In this document: positions 1,475 through 20,232 of the stretch, piece by piece
Layout of the letters: the number at the start of each line of letters is the position of its first letter
Numbering within the stretch: position 1 is the first letter of the stretch
DNA from: Pseudomonadota bacterium
GTDB lineage: Bacteria > Pseudomonadota > Alphaproteobacteria > ATCC43930 > CGMCC-115725
Direction: 5' to 3'
Length of the DNA: 28,475 nucleotides
NCBI GenBank assembly: GCA_021790295.1
Contig: JAJYIC010000002.1
Span: 1 to 28,475 of the forward strand
The notes under the pieces: generated by a model
Database searches by the model: none
Told to the model about the DNA's origin: nothing
The model's input: only the letters and a program-made list of their open reading frames with translations
Made by a program: the position numbers and the translations under genes

Positions 1475-2464
1475 ATGCGCCCAGTCCTTTCAGTCGAGCC
1501 GCCCGAGCTTTTCTTCGAGGATTTTGACGAAGGCGGGGAATTTCCGGTCGAGACCCGGGGGCCTTTGATGGTCGGCCATCAGGTGCGCTGGGCGGGCGCG
1601 ACCGACAATTACGATTCGGAATTCCACCACGACGAATATGTGGCAAAGGCCCAAGGGCTGCCGGGAATCCTTCTCTCCGGCCCTTTTATCGCCGCCTGGC
1701 TTCTCTCCTCGATCAACCGCTGGATGGGACGAGAAGCGCGCGTCCTGCGCTTTGCCGACCGCAACACCGGCTGGATCATGCCGCGCGAGGTTTTGCGCTT
1801 TGAGGGCCGCGTCGCAAGCACCGCCCGGCAGGAAGGAGGAGGCCTTGTCGATCTCGATTGCCGGGTCGAAAACGATCGCGGCGTTACGGTGACGACGGCG
1901 AGGGCGAGTCTCCTCCTGCCTTCGCGCGAGAAAAGCGCCAAGAGGGCGGCGCTTTCGCCCCTCGCACCGGAAGAAAACGCCAGGGAAAACGGCACGGAAA
2001 ACCGGGCGCCCGTTGGCGCCGGGGCGCTCGAAGCCGAACTGCAAAAAATGCTCGGGCCGATGGGCGAACCCGAAACCTTGCCGATCGAACTCCTCGCCGT
2101 CAGGCGCATGGCGACGACCGTCGAGGATTTCGATCCGATCCATTTCGACGAGGAAAAAGCGCGCTCCCGCGGCTATCGCGGGATCGTCGCGCCTTGGCCC
2201 ATCCTATGGCTTCTCTATTTCAACTGTTCGCATCAGAGGCCGCAATTCTCTTTCGGCAAGGCCACCGTTCACGGCGAAGACGCCTATGCGTTTTTCGAAC
2301 CGATCATCGTTGGCGACAGCATCACGGTCGAGGCCGCGGTCACCGATGCGCGGGTGAAAGAGGGCCGTTCCGGCCTTCTCGGCTTTCTCACGACGGAGCG
2401 CCGTTTTGTCAACGGTTCGGGGAAGTTGTGCGCCACCCTGCGCACCCTCGTGATCAGGCGTTGA
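1475..2464 (+). CDS. Double hotdog-fold (MaoC + MaoC_dehydrat_N-like) acyl-CoA hydratase/dehydratase
   Basis: Domain 1: FFEDF..G, RWAGATDNYDSEFHHD, GLPGILLSG. Domain 2: EDFDPIHFDEEKARSRGYRGIVAP, HGEDAYAFFEPIIVGDSI. AGGAG RBS upstream. Confidence 0.88.
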   Translation: MRPVLSVEPPELFFEDFDEGGEFPVETRGPLMVGHQVRWAGATDNYDSEFHHDEYVAKAQGLPGILLSGPFIAAWLLSSINRWMGREARVLRFADRNTGWIMPREVLRFEGRVASTARQEGGGLVDLDCRVENDRGVTVTTARASLLLPSREKSAKRAALSPLAPEENARENGTENRAPVGAGALEAELQKMLGPMGEPETLPIELLAVRRMATTVEDFDPIHFDEEKARSRGYRGIVAPWPILWLLYFNCSHQRPQFSFGKATVHGEDAYAFFEPIIVGDSITVEAAVTDARVKEGRSGLLGFLTTERRFVNGSGKLCATLRTLVIRR

Positions 2465-2837: not shown

Positions 2838-4019
2838 TCAGGGTTCGGGAACGACCGGCACCGGTCTCCCCAGAATGACGCGCCCCGGATGGTCGAGAAG
2901 CGCCTCGGCGATCCGCGCGCGATGCTCGTAGCTGGTGCCGAGCCTCAAGGTCCATGCCGCGACGCGCCGGTACCAGAGGTGAAGGTCGAATTCCATCATA
3001 AAGCCGATCCCGCCATGGATCGTCTGGCAAAGGCGAACCACCGCCTCGCATTTCTCGTTGCAAAAGGCCTTGGCCTGGGAAACCTCGACAGCGGCCGGAA
3101 GGCCCTGATCCATCTTCCAAAGCGCCTCAGAGGTGAGAAGCTCGCCGCCGTCGATCCACATCAGCATGTCGGCGCCCATATGCCAGATCGATTGGAAGGC
3201 GCCGATAGGCTGGCCGAAAGCGCGGCGGAATTTGGCGTATTCGATCGCGGTTTCGAAGTCTTTGCGCGTCGCCCCCAGCATCTCCGAGCAAAGAAGGGCG
3301 GTCGCCTCCTCCAAGAGGCGCTGCGCGGCCGGCGCTCCCTCATGGAGCCTTCCGACAAGAGAGGATTTGGGGACCAGGACATCGGCAAAGGTCACTTCGC
3401 TCACCTTGTCTTTGGCGAGGGTGACGAGAGGCCTCTCGGAAATGCCGCGGGTCTTGGTGTCGACAAGGAAAAGCGAAAGCCCGGCGCTTTGCGGCGAAGC
3501 CGGAGCGGTGCGGCAAACGACGAGACAGCGATCGGCGGCGGCAAAATTTTCGACAAAAAGCTTGGTGCCGTTGATGACGAAATCAGCGCCCGACGCTTTC
3601 GCTTCGGTCTTGACCGTTTGCGGGAGAAAACGCGGATCCTGTTCCGAGAAAGCCCAGGTGAGGACGGTGTCGCCGGCGCTGACGGCCGGCAGCAGGGAAG
3701 CCTTCTCTTCTTCCGAGCCCTCTCTTGCAACGGCGAGAGCCGTCACCACCGTAGAGAGAAGCGGCAAAGGGGCGACGGCGCGCCCGATCTCTCCGAAAAT
3801 GAGGCCGAGATAGGTGAGAGGCATGCCGCTTCCGCCATAGCGTTCGGGCAAAGCCATCCCTTGCCAGCCGAGATCCGCGGCCTTTTTCCACAACGCCGGA
3901 GGATAGCCTTTGGCGTCGTTTTCCATCTCGCGTACGAGGCGGGTCGGGCATTCCGCCTCGAGGAACTTGCGGGCGGTCTCACGGACCATCAATTCTTCTT
4001 CAGTCAGTGTCGTATCCAT
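2838..4019 (-). CDS. Acyl-CoA dehydrogenase, beta-type subunit of a probable heteromeric pair
   Basis: Start re-assigned to MDTTLTEEELMVRE (GGAGG upstream). Motifs: INGTKLFV, EYAKFRRAFGQPIGAFQ, HGGIGF..EFDLHLWYRR. Confidence 0.92.
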   Translation of the reverse strand: MDTTLTEEELMVRETARKFLEAECPTRLVREMENDAKGYPPALWKKAADLGWQGMALPERYGGSGMPLTYLGLIFGEIGRAVAPLPLLSTVVTALAVAREGSEEEKASLLPAVSAGDTVLTWAFSEQDPRFLPQTVKTEAKASGADFVINGTKLFVENFAAADRCLVVCRTAPASPQSAGLSLFLVDTKTRGISERPLVTLAKDKVSEVTFADVLVPKSSLVGRLHEGAPAAQRLLEEATALLCSEMLGATRKDFETAIEYAKFRRAFGQPIGAFQSIWHMGADMLMWIDGGELLTSEALWKMDQGLPAAVEVSQAKAFCNEKCEAVVRLCQTIHGGIGFMMEFDLHLWYRRVAAWTLRLGTSYEHRARIAEALLDHPGRVILGRPVPVVPEP

Positions 4020-4101
4020 AAGAGATCCTCCAGGAAGAGCCCCTTTCGGGCCTCGCCCGTTTCGATCATTGCGCCTGAAAAAAGCCGGCCTCGAACCGCC
4101 C

Positions 4102-5331
4102 TCACTTGCGCGGCATGTCGAGACCGCGGCGGGCAACTTGGTCGCGCATGACCTGAGTGCTGCCGTGGTTTATCCCGGACTGGAAGGCGCCCATCAGATT
4201 GTGGGCGAAAACGCCGCTTTCGATCGCCAGAGGCGAGCCGTTGAGCAACTGCCCGTAAGGCCCCAAAATCTGGGCGATGGCTTCGGTCGTCTTGACCCCG
4301 TGTTCGGGCGCCCAGACCTTCTCGGCAGAACCTTCATAAGTGAAATTGCCGCCGTGCTCGACGATCGACATGCTGCGCATCGTCATCAGGCGGCAGATCT
4401 GGGCCTCGATCCACAATTCCGCGATCTTGTCCCTGACCGCCGGATCCTTGGCCGGGGCATAACCGTCGAAGCTGTTCTCCTTGATCCAATTGACGATATC
4501 TTCGTCGCGGCGGACCGAAATGAGATAGCGCATGGCGCCGACCCGGTCGAGGTTGAGCCCCATGGCGCCGACCCGCCAGCCTTCGTTCTCCGCTCCGAGA
4601 AGAGCCGACCGCGGCACCCTTACGTCATCGAAGAAAACCTCGTTTGTCCGGGCCGTGCCGTAGGTCGTTCCGCTCGGCGCCCTGGGGGCGTTCTGGATCG
4701 TCCACAAAGGCCGCACGGTAATGCCCGGGGTATCCATCGGGATGAGAAAGATGGAGATGCCCCGGTGCTTGGGAAGATCGGGGTTGGTGCGGGCCATCAG
4801 GTAGATGTGGGTGGCGAAATGAGCGGCCGAGGTGTACATCTTCTGGCCGTTGATGGCGAACTCCTCGCCGTTGCCGACGCCGACGGCCCGGCACTGCAAG
4901 GAAGCGAGATCCGCCCCGGCGTTCGGCTCGGTAAAACCCAAGGCAAAGGAAACTTCGCCGCTGATAAGCCTTGGAATGAAATAGCGCTTCTGCTCTTCCG
5001 TTCCGGCGGCGAGGATTGCGGGCGCGCCGCTTCCGCCGAGCCCGACGGCGATGTTGACCCGGCCGAATTCTTCCTCGACGATGTATTGAGAGAGGCGGTC
5101 GCCGCCCTGCCCTCCGTACTCCTTGGGATAGCTGATCCCGAGCCAGCCGCGCGCCGCGATCTTTTGGAAAAGCTCGTAAAGAGGACCGCTTTTATGACGG
5201 CTCGGGCTTGCGCCGAAGCCGTCGTTCAACTCCTCCATCTCCGCGCGCAACTCCGGGGTCAGGTTTTCGGCGATAAAGGCGCGCACGCTTTTGCGAAGAG
5301 CCTCTTGCTCCGGTGTGTATCCGAAATCCAT
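4102..5331 (-). CDS. Acyl-CoA dehydrogenase, alpha-type subunit of a probable heteromeric pair
   Basis: MDFGYTPEQEALR, FALGFTEPNAGADLASL, INGQKMYTS, KHRGISIFL, NEVFFDDVRVP, ENEGW. It lacks the RxxFG..IG motif that the partner has. Confidence 0.93.
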   Translation of the reverse strand: MDFGYTPEQEALRKSVRAFIAENLTPELRAEMEELNDGFGASPSRHKSGPLYELFQKIAARGWLGISYPKEYGGQGGDRLSQYIVEEEFGRVNIAVGLGGSGAPAILAAGTEEQKRYFIPRLISGEVSFALGFTEPNAGADLASLQCRAVGVGNGEEFAINGQKMYTSAAHFATHIYLMARTNPDLPKHRGISIFLIPMDTPGITVRPLWTIQNAPRAPSGTTYGTARTNEVFFDDVRVPRSALLGAENEGWRVGAMGLNLDRVGAMRYLISVRRDEDIVNWIKENSFDGYAPAKDPAVRDKIAELWIEAQICRLMTMRSMSIVEHGGNFTYEGSAEKVWAPEHGVKTTEAIAQILGPYGQLLNGSPLAIESGVFAHNLMGAFQSGINHGSTQVMRDQVARRGLDMPRK

Positions 5332-5790: not shown

Positions 5791-6993
5791 ATGAACATGT
5801 TCCCCTCAGCATTGGACGACATCAAGGTTCTCGATCTGAGCCGGGGGATCGCTGGGCCGCTTTGCGCGAGGCTCCTCGGCGATTTCGGCGCCGATGTGAT
5901 CAAGGTCGAGCCTCGCGAAGGCGAATGCGGGCGGCGCATGCCGCCCTTTTTCGGGACAGAGCCCGATCCCGAAAAAAGCCTCTTCTTCCTTCTCGCCAAT
6001 CTCAACAAGCGCGGCGTCACCCTCGATCTCGAAACCCCGCAAGGCGCGGCCCTCCTCCGCGCCCTCGCCCGCAAGGTCGACGTCGTCGTCGAAAGCTTCC
6101 CTCCGGGCTATCTCGCCTCTCAGGGCCTCGATCTCGCCTCTCTCGAAAGGGAGAACCCGGGGCTCATCATGACCTCGATCACGCCTTTCGGCCAAACCGG
6201 CCCCAAGAGCCATTACAACGGAAACGAGATCGTCGCCTACGCGACGAGCGGAATCATGCACATCAGCGGCACCGCCGATCGCGAGCCTTTGAAACACGGC
6301 GGGTTTCCCGCCCAGTACGAGGCCGGCATGAACGGCATGCTGGCGACTCTCATGGCGCTCCTGGTTCGCGACGAAACCGGAGAGGGCCAGGCGGTTGACG
6401 TCTCGGTGCAGGAGGTTGCGGCCTCGACCCTGGTGATCAATCAGCCTTATTACAGCTGGAGCGGGGGCGTCCAGAACCGCCGGCGTTCGGAGGGGAGCCT
6501 TTTCGGCCAGGTCACCCCATGCAAAGACGGGTTTTTTGTCTGCCAGGAAGGCGGCGGCGCCTCCTGGGATGAGCTGGCCGATTTTTTCGGGCGGGAGGAA
6601 TTGAAAGAGGAGCGTTTTGCCGATCCGGCGCAAAGGGCTTTGAACGGAGAAGCTCTCGACGAGATCCTCTTGGCCGCGACCTGCGAACGCAGCATGGCGG
6701 AAATGTTCGAGACCGCTTGCGGGAAGTACCGGATGCTGTTCGGGATCGTGCAGACCCCTGCCGACCTTGCGCGCTGTCGCCAGCTCGAAGCGCGAAAATT
6801 CTACGAAGAGGTGGACCACCCGGTGATCGGCAGGATCAGGGTTCCATTCCGCCTCTTCAACATGACCGCCGGCGGCGCCCAGTGCCGGCGTCCCTCCCCT
6901 CTCCTCGGCCAGCACAACGATGAGGTCTACGGCGGCGTCCTCGGGCTTTTGGAGAAGGAACGCGCGGAATTGCGCGGCCGCGGCGTCATCTGA
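5791..6993 (+). CDS. Family III CoA-transferase, probable non-catalytic subunit (Asp replaced by Gln)
   Basis: KVLDLSRGIAGPLC, GADVIKVEP, NLNKRGVTLDL. FPAQYEAG has Gln (6313-6315) where the catalytic Asp aligns. Start could be 5797. Confidence 0.92.
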   Translation: MNMFPSALDDIKVLDLSRGIAGPLCARLLGDFGADVIKVEPREGECGRRMPPFFGTEPDPEKSLFFLLANLNKRGVTLDLETPQGAALLRALARKVDVVVESFPPGYLASQGLDLASLERENPGLIMTSITPFGQTGPKSHYNGNEIVAYATSGIMHISGTADREPLKHGGFPAQYEAGMNGMLATLMALLVRDETGEGQAVDVSVQEVAASTLVINQPYYSWSGGVQNRRRSEGSLFGQVTPCKDGFFVCQEGGGASWDELADFFGREELKEERFADPAQRALNGEALDEILLAATCERSMAEMFETACGKYRMLFGIVQTPADLARCRQLEARKFYEEVDHPVIGRIRVPFRLFNMTAGGAQCRRPSPLLGQHNDEVYGGVLGLLEKERAELRGRGVI

Positions 6994-8412: not shown

Positions 8413-8548
8413 GCGTCTGCGGCCCGCCGCAGGGACAAGAGGGCCGCGGCGCAAGCGGCCGAAAGGCAGCGGGGCTCTGCCCGCGACGCGGGCAGAGGAA
8501 GGCGGTAGAATGCGGCAAACGGGTCAAACCCGAGGATCGGAGGCGCCG

Positions 8549-10177
8549 GTGAAGACCACGATCACAAGCATGATTTCTGGGGAAAGGGAACGCGCGATCC
8601 GGCAGGGACGGTTCTGGCCGGACCGTCTCATCACCGACTATCTCGACCGAAACCTCGAAGAGAGGCCGCAAGCTCTCGCCGTCGTCGACGAGAACAGCAT
8701 GACCGGAGAGAGGGATGCCCTCTCTTATGCCGAACTCGGCCGCCGGGTGGATTGTCTGGCGGCAGGTCTTGCCCGGCTCGGCTTGAAGCGCGGCGATGTC
8801 CTCTCCTTTCAGCTTCCGAACTGGTGGCAGTTCACCGCCCTTCACCTAGCGGCGATGAGGCTTGGCGCCATCACCAACCCGTTGATGCCGATTTTTCGCG
8901 AACGCGAGCTTCTTTTCATGCTCTCTCTCGCCGAAACGAAAATCTTTGTCGTGCCGCGCTCCTTCCGCGGTTTCGATTATAGGGCGATGGCCGTGGCGTT
9001 GCGCCCCAAACTTCCGGCCCTGCAGCGCGTTCTCGTCATCGGCGGCGAAGGCGAAGAGGCGTTCGAGTCTCTCCTCGAAGAGCCGGGCGATGTGTCCGGA
9101 TCGCCCGCAACCGCAGACGAAGTGATCCAGGTGCAATTCACTTCGGGCACCACAGGTGAACCGAAAGGGGTGATGCACAGCTCGAACACGCTTATTTCCG
9201 CCCTTACCCCTTATGCCGAGCGTCTCGGCCTTTCTCGATCCGACGTCTTCCTCATGGCATCGCCCATGGCGCATCAGACCGGCTTTATGTACGGTTTGAT
9301 GCTGCCGATCGTTCTCGGGGCAAAGGCCGTCCTTCAGGATATCTGGAGCCCGCAAAAGGCGGCCGATCTCGTCGCCGCGGAGCGCGTCAGCTTTACCATG
9401 GCGGCGACCCCGTTTCTCGCCGACCTCACCGCCGAGGCAGAGCGGCGTCCCGCCGATTTTAGGAGCCTTCGCATCTTTCTTTCCGCCGGCGCCCCGATCC
9501 CGCGCGTTCTCGTGCGCCGCGCCGCCGAGCATCTCGGCGCCGCCATCATCTCGGCCTGGGGCATGACCGAAAACGGCGCCGTCACCACGACAAAGCCCGA
9601 AGACCCTGCCGAAAAGGTGTTCGAGACCGACGGCTGCGCTTTGCCGGGGATGGAGATCCGCATCGTCGATGAAGAACGACGGGTGCTGCCCGCGGGGGTC
9701 GAGGGACGCCTCGAAGTGCGCAGTTGCAGCAATTTCGCCGGTTATCTGAAACGCCCGGAATGGTACACGATCGACGCGCAAGGCTGGTTCGACAGCGGCG
9801 ACCTCGCGCGCATGGATAAAGAGGGATATGTGCGCCTCACCGGCCGCACAAAGGACATCGTCATCCGCGGCGGGGAGAACATCCCGGTGGTCGAGGTCGA
9901 AGGTCTCATCTACCGGCACCCGGCGGTGGCCGAGGCGGCGATCGTCGCCATGCCGGATGCGCGTCTCGGAGAACGCGCCTGCGCCTTTGTCGTCACCCGC
10001 GAAGGCCGCCCGCTTTCCCTTGCCGAACTCTCGGAGTTTCTTTTGGCGCAAAAGATCGCCAAACCCTATCTGCCCGAAAGGCTCGAAATCCTTTCGGCAT
10101 TGCCGAAGACGCCCTCCGGCAAGATCCAGAAATTCCGTTTGCGCGAGATCGCTAAGGAATTCGGCGCGGCCGAGTGA
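8549..10177 (+). CDS. aliA: Cyclohexanecarboxylate-CoA ligase-like (AliA-type) acyl-CoA synthetase
   Basis: FQLPNWWQF, NPLMPIFRERE, FTSGTTGEPKGVMHSSNTL, MASPMAHQTGFMYG, AWGMTE, FDSGDL, PKTPSGKIQKF. GTG at 8549 has GGAGG upstream; alternative ATG at 8510. Substrate not provable from sequence. Confidence 0.8.
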   Translation: MKTTITSMISGERERAIRQGRFWPDRLITDYLDRNLEERPQALAVVDENSMTGERDALSYAELGRRVDCLAAGLARLGLKRGDVLSFQLPNWWQFTALHLAAMRLGAITNPLMPIFRERELLFMLSLAETKIFVVPRSFRGFDYRAMAVALRPKLPALQRVLVIGGEGEEAFESLLEEPGDVSGSPATADEVIQVQFTSGTTGEPKGVMHSSNTLISALTPYAERLGLSRSDVFLMASPMAHQTGFMYGLMLPIVLGAKAVLQDIWSPQKAADLVAAERVSFTMAATPFLADLTAEAERRPADFRSLRIFLSAGAPIPRVLVRRAAEHLGAAIISAWGMTENGAVTTTKPEDPAEKVFETDGCALPGMEIRIVDEERRVLPAGVEGRLEVRSCSNFAGYLKRPEWYTIDAQGWFDSGDLARMDKEGYVRLTGRTKDIVIRGGENIPVVEVEGLIYRHPAVAEAAIVAMPDARLGERACAFVVTREGRPLSLAELSEFLLAQKIAKPYLPERLEILSALPKTPSGKIQKFRLREIAKEFGAAE

Positions 10178-12122: not shown

Positions 12123-12707
12123 CTAACGCCTGATGGTCGACGCCCGCAGGATGCAAAGGCGGTCGCCGTCCTGGTTGGTGTAGGTCGTCTCCGTCGTGAT
12201 GACGAGCATCGGGCTGCCGTCCTTGGTGATGTGCCCTTTGATGTCCGCGTAACGCGCTTGCGAATAGATGCGGTCGCCCAATCGCGGGTATTGGTAAAGC
12301 TCGATCTCGTTGCCGGCGTTGAGAATGCGCTTCAACGGCGTCGGCACCGGCGGCAAGGCCCCGGGCCCGCTGTCGCCGCCTTCGCGTACCCCGCCGATGC
12401 CGTCCGACTCCGGGTTTTCGCGAAACGCGCGCGAGATCGGGTCTTCGGCGCCGGCCGGCGTTTTGCGACTCAAATACGAGCAGTAGATCGGCGGCGTCAC
12501 GATCCCGCCGAAGCGCGTCTTCCTGGCAAATTCCTCATCCCAGTAACGCGGATCGGGATCCATGATGGCATTGGTAAAAAGGCGCAAACCCTCGCGCTCG
12601 ATGCCCCAACGGGGGCTTGCTTCGACCCTCTCGGCCGAGGTGCCGATCAACGCCTTTATCTTGTCGGTCAAAGGATTTTCGGCTGCGCCGGTCTTGGCCT
12701 CGCTCAT
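12123..12707 (-). CDS. MaoC_dehydrat_N/FAS1-like hotdog subunit (partner of the next gene)
   Basis: AIMDPDPRYWDEEFARKTRFGGIVTPP, LNAGNEIELYQYPRLGDRI, YTNQDGDRL; ends 12 nt before the partner gene. Confidence 0.88.
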   Translation of the reverse strand: MSEAKTGAAENPLTDKIKALIGTSAERVEASPRWGIEREGLRLFTNAIMDPDPRYWDEEFARKTRFGGIVTPPIYCSYLSRKTPAGAEDPISRAFRENPESDGIGGVREGGDSGPGALPPVPTPLKRILNAGNEIELYQYPRLGDRIYSQARYADIKGHITKDGSPMLVITTETTYTNQDGDRLCILRASTIRR

Positions 12708-17462: not shown

Positions 17463-18335
17463 TCACCCTCCCGCGCTCCCTTTCCCGCCAAGCCCCAAAA
17501 GGCGGCGCGCGAGAGTGAGATGCGGTCTGTCGAGCATTCGTCCTTCGAGCGCGATCGTTCCCGACCCGGGGTTCTGGGCAAAGAGAGAGACCACCTTTTT
17601 CGCCCAAGCGATTTCCTCTTCGCTCGCGGTGAAGGCCTTGTTGATCACGCCGACCTGCGCCGGATGGATAGCGATCTTGGCGACAAAGCCTGCCCTGCGC
17701 GCCGCCTCGCATTCCGCCCGCAACCCTTTCTCGTCAGCGAAATCGGTGCTGACCGTGTCGATCGCCGCAACCCCGGCCGCCGCCGCAGCCAAAAGGCAAA
17801 GCGCGCGCGCCAAGCGATAAACGTCCTCGTAAACGCCGTCCTTTCGGCGATTGTTCCCGCCGACGACGGCCGCCAGATCCTCGGCCCCCCAGGTGAGGCC
17901 TTCGAGGCGGTCGGAAACTCCCTGGTAGCCGCCCAAGGAAAACATCGCCTGCGGCGTTTCGGTGGCGATCGCGATCACCTTGACGGCGCCGGCGGCAAGC
18001 CCGGAAGCGGCCTCGAGGGCAGAAAGCGCGTGATCGAGAGAAGAGAGATCGGCGGGAACGCATTTCGGCAAAAGGATCCCGTCCGGTCCCGCCGGGATGA
18101 CCGCAGCCAGATCTTCGAGCGCCCATTCGCTCGCGAGAGGATTGATGCGGACAAAACGGCGGAAGGAGGAACCGCGGCTTGCCGCGAGAAAGGCCCGCGC
18201 GGCGACCCTCGCCTGCGGCCGGTTTTCCGGCACGACCGAATCCTCGAGATCGAGAATGAGCGCGTCCGCACCCGTTTGCGGCGCGCGGGCGAGTTTTCTT
18301 TCGCTGTCGGCGGGGACGAACAGAAGCGAGCGCAT
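17463..18335 (-). CDS. CitE-family (HpcH/HpaI aldolase/citrate lyase) acyl-CoA lyase, Rv2498c-like
   Basis: [45 protein letters not shown]; TGATG coupling with the upstream gene. Confidence 0.92.
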   Translation of the reverse strand: MRSLLFVPADSERKLARAPQTGADALILDLEDSVVPENRPQARVAARAFLAASRGSSFRRFVRINPLASEWALEDLAAVIPAGPDGILLPKCVPADLSSLDHALSALEAASGLAAGAVKVIAIATETPQAMFSLGGYQGVSDRLEGLTWGAEDLAAVVGGNNRRKDGVYEDVYRLARALCLLAAAAAGVAAIDTVSTDFADEKGLRAECEAARRAGFVAKIAIHPAQVGVINKAFTASEEEIAWAKKVVSLFAQNPGSGTIALEGRMLDRPHLTLARRLLGLGGKGSAGG

Positions 18336-18793
18336 CAGGAGACCTTTGGCCGGCAAAGCATCAAAGCCGCGCGTTTGCAGACGGCCACGATCTCGCCCCT
18401 CTGGTTGAGCCCCTGATGCTCGAATTCGACGATGCCGGCGTCGGCGCGCGAGCGGCTGCGGCGCGTGCCTAGCACGATCGTGCGCGCTCTCAAGGTGTCG
18501 CCGTGGAAGACCGGTTTTGGAAAGCGGACCTCGGTCATGCCGAGGTTGGCGACGGTGGTGCCGAGAGTGGTGTCGCCGACGGAAAGGCCGACGACGAGGC
18601 CGAGAGTGAAGATGCTGTTGACGAGGCGCTCTTTGAACTCCGTCCCTTTGGCGAATTCGGCGTCGAGGTGAAGGGGCTGAGGGTTCATCGTCAGGGTGGT
18701 AAAGAGCACGTTGTCCATCTCGGTAACGGTGCGCGTGGTCTCGTGCTCGAATATTTCGCCTTCGGCGAATTCCTCGAAATAGCGTCCGCTCAT
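18335..18793 (-). CDS. MaoC family dehydratase, Rv2499c-like
   Basis: [56 protein letters not shown]. Confidence 0.92.
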
Positions 18794-20232
18794 CGCTTCT
18801 CCTCCTTTTGCGGCCCCCTTTCGCGGCGGAGGGGTGCGATCATCGCCTCGGGCCGCACCCAGCGATCGAAATCGGCGGCGCGAAGAAAGCCGGTCTGCAA
18901 AGCCGCCTGCCGCAGCGACAGCCCTTCGCGCTCCGCGAGAAGGGCAATCTGCGCCGCCTTTTCGTGGCCGATATGGGGGACAAGGGCGGTCGCGAGCATC
19001 AAGCCGCTTTCGAGATGCTCCCTGATCCGCTTCTCGTCGGGCTCGAGGCCTCGGGCGCAGCGCTCATCGAAAGAGCGACAGGCGTCGGCGAGAAGCTCGG
19101 CCGATTCGAGAACATTATGCAAGATCACCGGCTTATAGGCGTTCAATTGAAACTGGCCCTGCGAGCCGGCGAAGGCGACCGCATGATCGTTGCCGAAAAC
19201 CTGCACGCACACTTGTGTCAAGGCTTCGCATTGCGTGGGGTTGATCTTGCCGGGCATGATCGAGGAGCCGGGTTCGTTTTCCGGGATCTTGAGTTCGCCG
19301 ATCCCGGCGCGCGGGCCGCATGCGTAAAGGCGTATATCGCTCGCGATCTTGTAAAGGGCGCCCGCAAGGGTGCGCAGCGCGGCGCTCGCATTGACGAGAG
19401 CATCGTGAGCGGAAAGCGCGGCGAACTTGTTCAGCGCCGAGAGGAAAGGCCGGCCCGTCTCTGCCGCGATCATGGCCGCCGCGCTCTCGCCAAAACGCGG
19501 ATCGGCGTTGAGCCCGGTGCCGACCGCGGTGCCCCCGAGGGCCAGAGAAAGGAGCCGCTTTTCCGCACTTTCGATCAGGGCCATCCCCTCTTGGAGCTGG
19601 GCTTCCCAACCCGAGATCACCTGCCCCAATAAAATGGGTGTGGCGTCCTGAAGATGGGTTCGGCCGACCATGACGATCCCCGCATAGGCCGCCCTCTTTT
19701 CGCCGAGCGTGCGCGAAAGCCCGGCAAGCGCCGGGAGAAGGCGGCCGGAGAAAGCCTCGACCGTGGCGATATGCATGACCGTCGGGAAGACGTCGTTCGA
19801 GGATTGCCCGCAATTCACGTCGTCGTTCGGATGGATCGGCGACTTCCCTCCGAGAGCGCCGCCGGCGAGCGCGTTGGCCCGATTCGCGATGACCTCGTTC
19901 GCGTTCATGTTGGTTTGCGTTCCCGAGCCGGTCTGAAAGACGACGAGGGGAAATTCGGCGTCGAGCGCGCCCTCGATCACTTCCTGCGCCACCCTTTCGA
20001 TAAGCGCCGCCTTTTCCGCGGAAAGGACGCCCAGATCCCGGTTCGCTCGGGCCGCGCTTTTCTTGACGATCCCGAGCGCGCGTATGACCCCGCGCCCCCA
20101 GCGGAAACGATCTTTCCCGATCGGGAAGTTTTGCCGCGAGCGCTCCGTCTCGGCGCCCCAAAGCCGCTCGGCCGGCACCTTGACCTCGCCAAGGGCATCC
20201 CCTTCGATGCGGTATCGCGCCTTTCTAGCCAT
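18790..20232 (-). CDS. fumC: Class II fumarate hydratase
   Basis: [39 protein letters not shown], signature [15 protein letters not shown]. Confidence 0.96.

Follow-up and report, generated by a model that had tools for sequence, protein, structure and literature searches.

How does an acyl-CoA dehydrogenase (ACAD) remove the alpha-proton of its substrate when neither of the two sites that can hold the catalytic glutamate holds one? The textbook ACAD mechanism uses one Glu at one of two interchangeable positions. The question arises in a 28,475-nt stretch of DNA (the window; G+C content 64%) at the start of contig JAJYIC010000002.1 of an alphaproteobacterial genome (GenBank GCA_021790295.1; 84% complete, 415 contigs, no 16S rRNA gene found), where two ACAD genes, alpha and then beta, stand in tandem on the minus strand. 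Judged by sequence, the pair is a true alpha/beta ACAD on every point tested, save for the glutamate that defines such enzymes: alpha has Asp262 at one base position and His389 at the other. These residues are not a product of chance and are under strong selection. We propose, with moderate confidence, that the two subunits would form an electron-transfer flavoprotein (ETF)-linked alpha2beta2 dehydrogenase, with Asp and His as its catalytic pair, acting on a 3-branched dicarboxylyl-CoA.

Asp and His at the catalytic-base positions of a two-subunit ACAD

The two genes and the parts of alpha that matter here are the following.

4102..5331, minus strand: alpha subunit (catalytic ACAD subunit, binding the isoalloxazine of flavin adenine dinucleotide, FAD), 409 aa; three ACAD Pfam domains; best PDB matches Tcur3483 and ChsE4
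2838..4019, minus strand: beta subunit (non-catalytic, completes the FAD site), 393 aa from the ATG at 4019; three ACAD domains
4546..4548, minus strand: GAC codon of Asp262, at the helix-G (IVD/LCAD/ChsE4) catalytic-base position; from HMMER alignments, conservation and codons
4165..4167, minus strand: CAC codon of His389, at the J-K loop (MCAD Glu376) catalytic-base position; from profile alignment via beta, conservation and codons
4645..4698, minus strand: loop insertion IQNAPRAPSGTTYGTART, residues 212-229, between two strands of the middle beta domain; from an alignment gap and an AlphaFold2 (AF2) model

The beta open reading frame (ORF) was listed as 2838-4136 with a TTG start. The true start is almost certainly the ATG at 4019, because GGAGGA lies upstream of it and the resulting length of 393 aa matches homologues; the alpha-beta gap is then 82 nt. 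Alpha and beta each have the N-terminal, middle and C-terminal domains of the ACAD superfamily (PF02771, PF02770 and PF00441, all above their Pfam cut-offs), and HpaB_N also matched weakly in the Pfam scan. The closest solved structures by sequence are Tcur3483 (6wy8/6wy9, E = 3e-57) and ChsE4 (4x28, E = 1e-54). An AF2 model of alpha built from a 133-sequence alignment (predicted local distance difference test score, pLDDT, 91.8) is matched by ACAD structures with template modelling (TM) scores of 0.76-0.83 normalised to the query, the best fold matches again being Tcur3483 and ChsE4 (0.83).

The flavin-binding motifs are divided between the subunits. Alpha contains the flavin-ring motifs TEPNAGAD and Y-T-S, with Glu135, Asp141 and Thr167 invariant, keeps T-E-P-x-A-G-x-D and Y/F-T-S/T across its homologues, and has lost R..FG and Q..GG.G. 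Beta conserves Y.K.R.AFG and Q..HGG.GF, has a degenerate T-E-P motif without TEP..GSD, and follows alpha in 80/80 loci (561 stretches of a species-genome collection encode a relative, with homologues in at least 561 species genomes; these 80 are the best loci). In ChsE4-ChsE5, alpha binds the isoalloxazine and holds the catalytic residue and the substrate site, and beta binds ADP-ribose (PMC11153573); at the level of motifs, the split seen here matches that published division of labour. The genes are adjacent, and beta keeps only the trans ADP-binding residues, as in enzymes of the ChsE4-ChsE5 type, but the catalytic Glu that these carry on helix G of alpha is missing, the site reading LNLDRV. 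By analogy, an alpha2beta2-type assembly would be expected. The initial annotation of this DNA had stated that heteromeric ACADs use a Glu base supplied by one subunit, which is correct, alpha being the subunit that supplies it (PMC11153573).

That annotation had also put LNLDRV at the usual Glu position of alpha, INHGS at the MCAD-type IYEGT position, and LRLGT of beta at the same MCAD-type site, and all three placements held up on alignment. In HMMER alignments LNLDRV (residues 259-264) falls on LNHERV of ChsE4 (4x28_A) and LNHERI of Tcur3483 (6wy8_B), with Asp262 replacing their Glu (in ChsE4, presumably Glu247), and the IVD match, which stops at query residue 265 (chain residue 257), places Asp262 on IVD Glu254. 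Within INHGS (residues 387-391), His389 lies on the middle Gly of F-G-G-G in Tcur3483 and ChsE4, and Asn388-His389 stand opposite their Gly-Gly. Profile alignment pairs His389 with the Leu of RLGTS in beta (LRLGT, residue 397 in the long TTG ORF and 358 from the ATG start), and this Leu in turn corresponds to the Glu in the Y-E-G-T of MCAD-type enzymes; the two alignments, by way of beta, therefore put His389 at the MCAD-type base position. The C-terminal 110 residues of alpha, used as the sole query, reached no MCAD-type chains. Neither helix G nor the J-K loop of the pair holds a canonical catalytic glutamate: the two positions are Asp262 and His389 in alpha, Ala and Leu in beta. As the base position on helix G and that in the J-K loop occupy topologically equivalent places in three dimensions (PMC11153573), Asp262 and His389 should be neighbours at the substrate alpha-carbon.

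The insertion IQNAPRAPSGTTYGTART directly precedes NEVFF in alpha and, in the AF2 model, is a loop between strands 204-210 and 228-240. Its presence before NEVFF had been noted at the outset with a length of ~10 residues. The presence stands and the length does not: ChsE4 and Tcur3483 have a 12-residue gap opposite alpha residues 216-227 (HMMER), and by our own count the insertion is ~9 residues relative to MCAD.

Conservation of the Asp/His family and its relatives

Of the 8000 candidate clusters scored in a 90%-identity protein library, at least 7973 reach E <= 1e-20. The 120 listed clusters are 77-91% identical to alpha, and close homologues overall 65-91%; the nearest come from 'Proteobacteria' and Acetobacteraceae metagenome-assembled genomes. 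Whether Asp262 and His389 vary among close homologues had been named as the check on the initial annotation, and they do not: Asp262 is present in 199/199 and His389 in 198/199, their neighbours L-N-L-D-R and I-N-H-G are invariant in the 199 sequences, and the insertion segment has a single constant length across all of them. Seven more Dehalococcoidia genes agree with the Asp262/His389 pattern. In 89 genes, Asp262 is encoded by GAC (70) or GAT (19) and His389 by CAC (81) or CAT (8), with no GAR or CAR codon at either site. Because the third position has changed repeatedly without producing a Glu or Gln codon, it is Asp and His themselves that are selected for.

Acetobacteraceae and further Alphaproteobacteria contribute to the 80 best loci, as do Burkholderiales, Rokubacteria, Lambdaproteobacteria and many Dehalococcoidia/SAR202 genomes, and NC10/Methylomirabilis appears among the source names of the protein matches. 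The distribution is patchy: 8 of 301 sampled Dehalococcoidia genomes carry the family, and a sample of 300 other genomes from the window's phylum contained no member. L102, a divergent relative from a metagenome (41% identity), has the Asp, the His and the insertion, together with a translationally coupled beta.

Among the 127 nearest full-length representatives at 50% identity, residue 262 is Glu in 108 and Asp in 9. The Asp/His combination is limited to this clade (P0001, P0121); in 7 of the remaining 125, which belong to other alpha-type lineages, Asp occupies position 262 and residue 389 is Gly, Ala or Ser. A separate alpha-type lineage (P0159, P0201, P0214 and P0224) has a conserved L-E-G-D-R-F-W, in which the helix-G base position is Asp, and its MCAD position is Gly. 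Given these separate Asp lineages, Asp turns up repeatedly, though in a minority, at the helix-G site of alpha-type subunits.

The tree groups the clade with P0121 (Asp/His, insertion) and P0125 (Glu/His, insertion), and P0122 is the next branch outward (support 0.98-0.999). P0122 belongs to a large family, 51% identical to alpha, that keeps the alpha-type motifs, lacks the insertion and reads L-N-L-G-R and A-H-G-G, which is Gly262/His389 in 101/101 members; by sequence, its canonical catalytic site has no acidic residue. No member of this sister family was found in the metagenome scan, in 300 genomes of the window's phylum or in 300 Dehalococcoidia genomes. His389 is common to a 13-member superclade of the tree in which residue 262 is Asp, Glu or Gly. 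Because the His is constant and the helix-G residue varies, His389 is a shared derived feature of the superclade, and because every member of the sister family has Gly262/His389, it is older than Asp262.

Gene context and proposed pathway

Outside the Chloroflexi, the pair is accompanied by a conserved set of genes, seen in Acetobacteraceae, Rokubacteria, Lambdaproteobacteria and Burkholderiales. Counts refer to 38 non-Chloroflexi loci, several of them short contigs, and to our own ORF clustering, which is crude in high-GC DNA. In the window the set comprises, besides alpha and beta:

5791..6993, plus strand: CoAT2, family-III CoA-transferase, divergent from alpha; Pfam CoA_transf_3; with alpha in 20/38 loci, 60-75% identity
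6997..8412, plus strand: CoAT3, family-III CoA-transferase, probable partner of CoAT2; 19/38 loci, 57-75% identity
12798..13997, minus strand: 3-hydroxy-3-methylglutaryl-CoA (HMG-CoA)-lyase-like lyase; Pfam HMGL-like; adjacent in 14/38 loci
12123..12707, minus strand: hot-dog (MaoC/FAS1_DH-like) hydratase subunit, long; Pfam; 15/38 loci, 64-79% identity
11607..12110, minus strand: probable hot-dog hydratase subunit, short; faint Pfam match only; 19/38 loci, mostly 76-86% identity
11276..11548, minus strand: conserved 90-aa protein; 16/38 loci, 65-80% identity
14017..15462, minus strand: MmgE/PrpD-family protein, a common companion of the other genes; Pfam; 5/38 loci, 73-80% identity

The lyase scores 168 bits against the nearest NCBIfam HMG-CoA lyase model (subfamily cut-off 246) and matches HMG-CoA lyases in the PDB at E = 1e-30. 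The 90-aa protein, for which Pfam and NCBIfam gave no family match, may be an accessory subunit; its gene sits beside the two hot-dog hydratase genes. An alpha/beta hydrolase gene, also present in the window, occurs with the pair in 6/38 loci.

In Dehalococcoidia the surroundings differ. A fused single-polypeptide EtfB-EtfA (613 aa) is encoded directly upstream of alpha and beta in 29 loci (e.g. L055:7470-9311), in a syntenic arrangement flanked by genes for a nicotinate phosphoribosyltransferase (upstream) and a luciferase-like monooxygenase (downstream). An orthologue of the lyase (56-66% identity) lies elsewhere in the genome or a few kb off in 5/5 tested genomes. In the 301-genome sample the lyase is present in 8/8 alpha-bearing and 6/293 alpha-lacking genomes (Fisher p = 2e-12, a value that overstates the evidence because the sampled genomes are related).

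The transferase pair, the R-hydratase-type hot-dog pair and the HMG-CoA-lyase-type enzyme together point to a beta-oxidation-like route ending in C-C cleavage of a tertiary 3-hydroxyacyl-CoA, and hence to a 3-branched substrate. In this route the two-subunit family-III CoA-transferase would activate the acid, alpha/beta would desaturate it, the two-subunit hot-dog hydratase would then add water, and the HMG-CoA-lyase-like enzyme would split the 3-hydroxy product into acetyl-CoA and a keto acid. For the desaturation, alpha would hold the flavin ring and contribute both substrate pocket and catalytic residues, and beta would supply only contacts to the ADP part of FAD. Asp262 and His389 would act as a pair at the substrate alpha-carbon, one of them taking the alpha-proton while hydride passes to FAD N5, the other tuning the first or holding the carboxylate on the substrate beta-carbon; electrons would exit through ETF. 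The sequences show the residues and their conservation, the motifs of the subunits and the linkage of the genes; how the subunits assemble, how Asp and His share the work, which acceptor takes the electrons and which substrate is used are parts of this scheme that we infer.

Methylsuccinate is processed in Pseudomonas and Cupriavidus by the joint action of an MmgE/PrpD isomerase, a family-III transferase and an ACAD, and the substrates of the MmgE/PrpD family share a C4-dicarboxylate core (PMC12290011). On the strength of that core and that precedent, our best guess at the substrate is a methylsuccinyl- or 3-methylglutaryl-type CoA ester. The shorter acid together with the His could then be an adaptation to the carboxylate or the branch on the beta-carbon. 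A bulkier substrate, which the initial annotation had suggested, finds no support here: Asn388-His389 fill the space of the Gly-Gly of the steroid enzymes, and the partner genes point to small branched dicarboxylates.

Other genes of the window, namely its remaining CoA-transferase, a fused MaoC protein, a CoA ligase, a TIM-barrel protein, an HpcH lyase and a fumarase, are not conserved with the pair in the 38 loci. The acyl-CoA ligase (8510-10177, plus strand) scores 738 bits against the cyclohexanecarboxylate-CoA ligase model (cut-off 792). The fused double hot-dog (MaoC/FAS1_DH) protein (329 aa; 1475-2464, plus strand) adjoins a third family-III CoA-transferase (227-1402), and a 60%-identical paralogue of it adjoins another CoA-transferase on contig C48; the genome has more than 25 family-III CoA-transferase genes. 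Downstream lie an HpcH-family citrate-lyase-beta/RipC-like C-C lyase (17463-18356, minus strand) and a class II fumarase (18790-20232, minus strand), both of which fit dicarboxylate metabolism.

Alternative catalytic roles and comparison with known systems

The initial annotation had put forward an Asp/His-based variant, and this idea has gained support: both residues are fixed, Glu and Gln codons are never seen, the positions are the canonical base positions, and the flavin-binding apparatus is intact. The strict conservation of Asp262 indicates that the acid matters in the Asp/His family, and the Gly/His sister family favours a central role for the His. Several points weigh against the ETF-linked enzyme with an Asp/His pair that we propose. 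The sister family has Gly at 262, so the wider clade can do without an acid at that position. The enzyme is known here from genes and a predicted structure, and the closeness of Asp262 and His389 to each other and to the substrate is deduced from homology. The ETF linkage is limited to one class, and in one of its loci (L038) the ETF-alpha gap is ~545 nt and contains a 77-aa ORF; the Dehalococcoidia transferases and hydratase subunits do not adjoin the pair. An unrelated single-gene ACAD already handles methylsuccinyl-CoA in Pseudomonas and Cupriavidus.

Among the other explanations, we regard it as possible, if tentative, that His389 is the general base of a histidine-type ACAD and that Asp262 only orients and polarises it in an Asp-His dyad, the dyad partner being missing in the sister family or replaced by water or by the substrate's own carboxylate. 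The persistence of His389 throughout the superclade while residue 262 changes, and in every sister-family member alongside intact alpha-type flavin motifs, would suit this role, as would its location at the MCAD base position, where the thioester carbonyl is normally bound by the backbone NH. However, within the Asp/His family Asp262 is as strictly conserved as His389, the Gly/His family may catalyse a different reaction, and a literature search for heteromeric ACADs that lack the Glu or use a His base returned nothing relevant and no precedent for a His base in the superfamily. More doubtful is the view that the substitutions have no mechanistic meaning, with Asp262 doing the job of Glu and His389 being a pocket-lining residue tied to substrate specificity. 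The 7 of 125 representatives with Asp262 and a small residue at 389 indicate that Asp alone can occupy the site, but GAR is one step from GAY and yet absent in the 89 genes, so Glu is selected against, and His389 is equally fixed and older than the Asp.

Non-dehydrogenase flavin chemistry, also raised in the initial annotation, seems to us improbable. It would be a redox-neutral or otherwise atypical reaction (elimination, isomerisation, or decarboxylation after transient alpha,beta-oxidation) in which two acid/base groups serve proton transfers at C-alpha and C-gamma; 4-hydroxybutyryl-CoA dehydratase is an example of such atypical flavin chemistry. The presence of two ionisable residues at the catalytic locus instead of one is in keeping with it, as are the weak HpaB_N match and the catalytic Asp of the phosphate-eliminating ACAD10/11 and LvaC (PMC12440821). 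But the Asp of ACAD10/11 accompanies a kinase domain and an HCMR motif, and the window ORFs scanned against Pfam showed no kinase domain, while the HCMR motif was not searched for explicitly. The fused ETF conserved upstream in Dehalococcoidia also argues against it, and the downstream hydratase and lyase require a plain 2-enoyl-CoA; because of this ETF linkage and these downstream enzymes, a redox-neutral reaction is less likely than a dehydrogenation.

The locus thus holds an uncharacterised Asp/His-type heteromeric ACAD family within an uncharacterised, widely spread catabolic gene set, whose probable role is the breakdown of branched dicarboxylic acids. In this large and very conserved family both base positions are taken by other ionisable residues, and its sister family keeps only the His, so that the minimal base in the ACAD fold becomes a question testable by point mutants. 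Should the clade and its Gly262/His389 sister family use the His as alpha-proton base, with Asp262 as dyad backing here, which we hold to be conceivable but not probable, this would be a third catalytic solution in the ACAD superfamily. It would also mark an undescribed, highly conserved, horizontally spread branched-dicarboxylate catabolic route in uncultured soil, groundwater and marine bacteria (SAR202/Dehalococcoidia, Rokubacteria, NC10 and peat Acetobacteraceae). The pair anchors an unstudied eight-gene set in abundant uncultured lineages, and the substrate of that set would add a step to models of dicarboxylic and branched acid turnover in soil and sea.

Of known enzymes, the alpha2beta2 steroid side-chain ACADs ChsE4-ChsE5 (FadE26-FadE27) and Tcur3481-Tcur3483 share with our candidate the adjacent alpha and beta genes, the catalytic locus on alpha helix G and a beta that keeps only trans FAD contacts. 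Alpha is ~30-32% identical to ChsE4 and Tcur3483 and differs from them in having Asp for the catalytic Glu, the 12-residue loop insertion, and Asn-His for the Gly-Gly of the J-K loop, one of whose positions is altered in the Tcur3483 G363A entry. Neither the J-K-loop Gly-Gly nor a steroid-catabolic context is found here; unlike that of the steroid enzymes, the gene context is of the dicarboxylate type without steroid genes. Several alpha homologues carry the Joint Genome Institute (JGI) label '3-oxocholest-4-en-26-oyl-CoA dehydrogenase alpha subunit'. In view of these residue differences and this gene context, the labels are probably wrong and carried over from ChsE4; annotating Asp/His proteins in this way would yield false steroid-degradation calls in metagenomes.

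IVD and LCAD (helix-G base) and MCAD (J-K loop base) have the same fold as alpha, with Asp262 corresponding to IVD Glu254 and His389 to the MCAD Glu position. They are homotetramers with one Glu at one position and a small residue at the other, whereas in alpha both positions are ionisable and neither is Glu. The IVD-type (helix-G) base position is associated with 3-branched substrates, which fits the lyase-based route proposed here. ACAD10, ACAD11 and LvaC have a catalytic Asp, as alpha does, but they are kinase-coupled eliminases, and we take their Asp to be at the C-terminal (MCAD-type) position and not on helix G. Their ACAD domains work in kinase-coupled phosphate elimination and have the HCMR motif (PMC12440821).

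The pimeloyl-CoA dehydrogenase PimC/PimD is likewise a two-subunit ACAD acting on a dicarboxylyl-CoA. PimC (TIGR03204) is the best NCBIfam model for alpha and PimD (TIGR03203) the second best for beta; membership was rejected, at 171.5 bits against a cut-off of 623.85 and 152 bits against 652.7. In the Pseudomonas/Cupriavidus itaconate cluster, whose (RS)-methylsuccinyl-C4-CoA dehydrogenase (PA0879/Q0K3E4) acts on a branched C5-dicarboxylate, this ACAD is grouped with genes for a family-III CoA-transferase, a hot-dog hydratase, a C-C lyase and also an MmgE/PrpD protein (PMC12290011), a likeness to the window set that lies in cluster logic. The PA0879 enzyme is encoded by a single gene and works with an HpcH/Ccl-type lyase, whereas in the window set ACAD, transferase and hydratase are all two-subunit enzymes and the linked lyase belongs to the HMG-CoA-lyase type.

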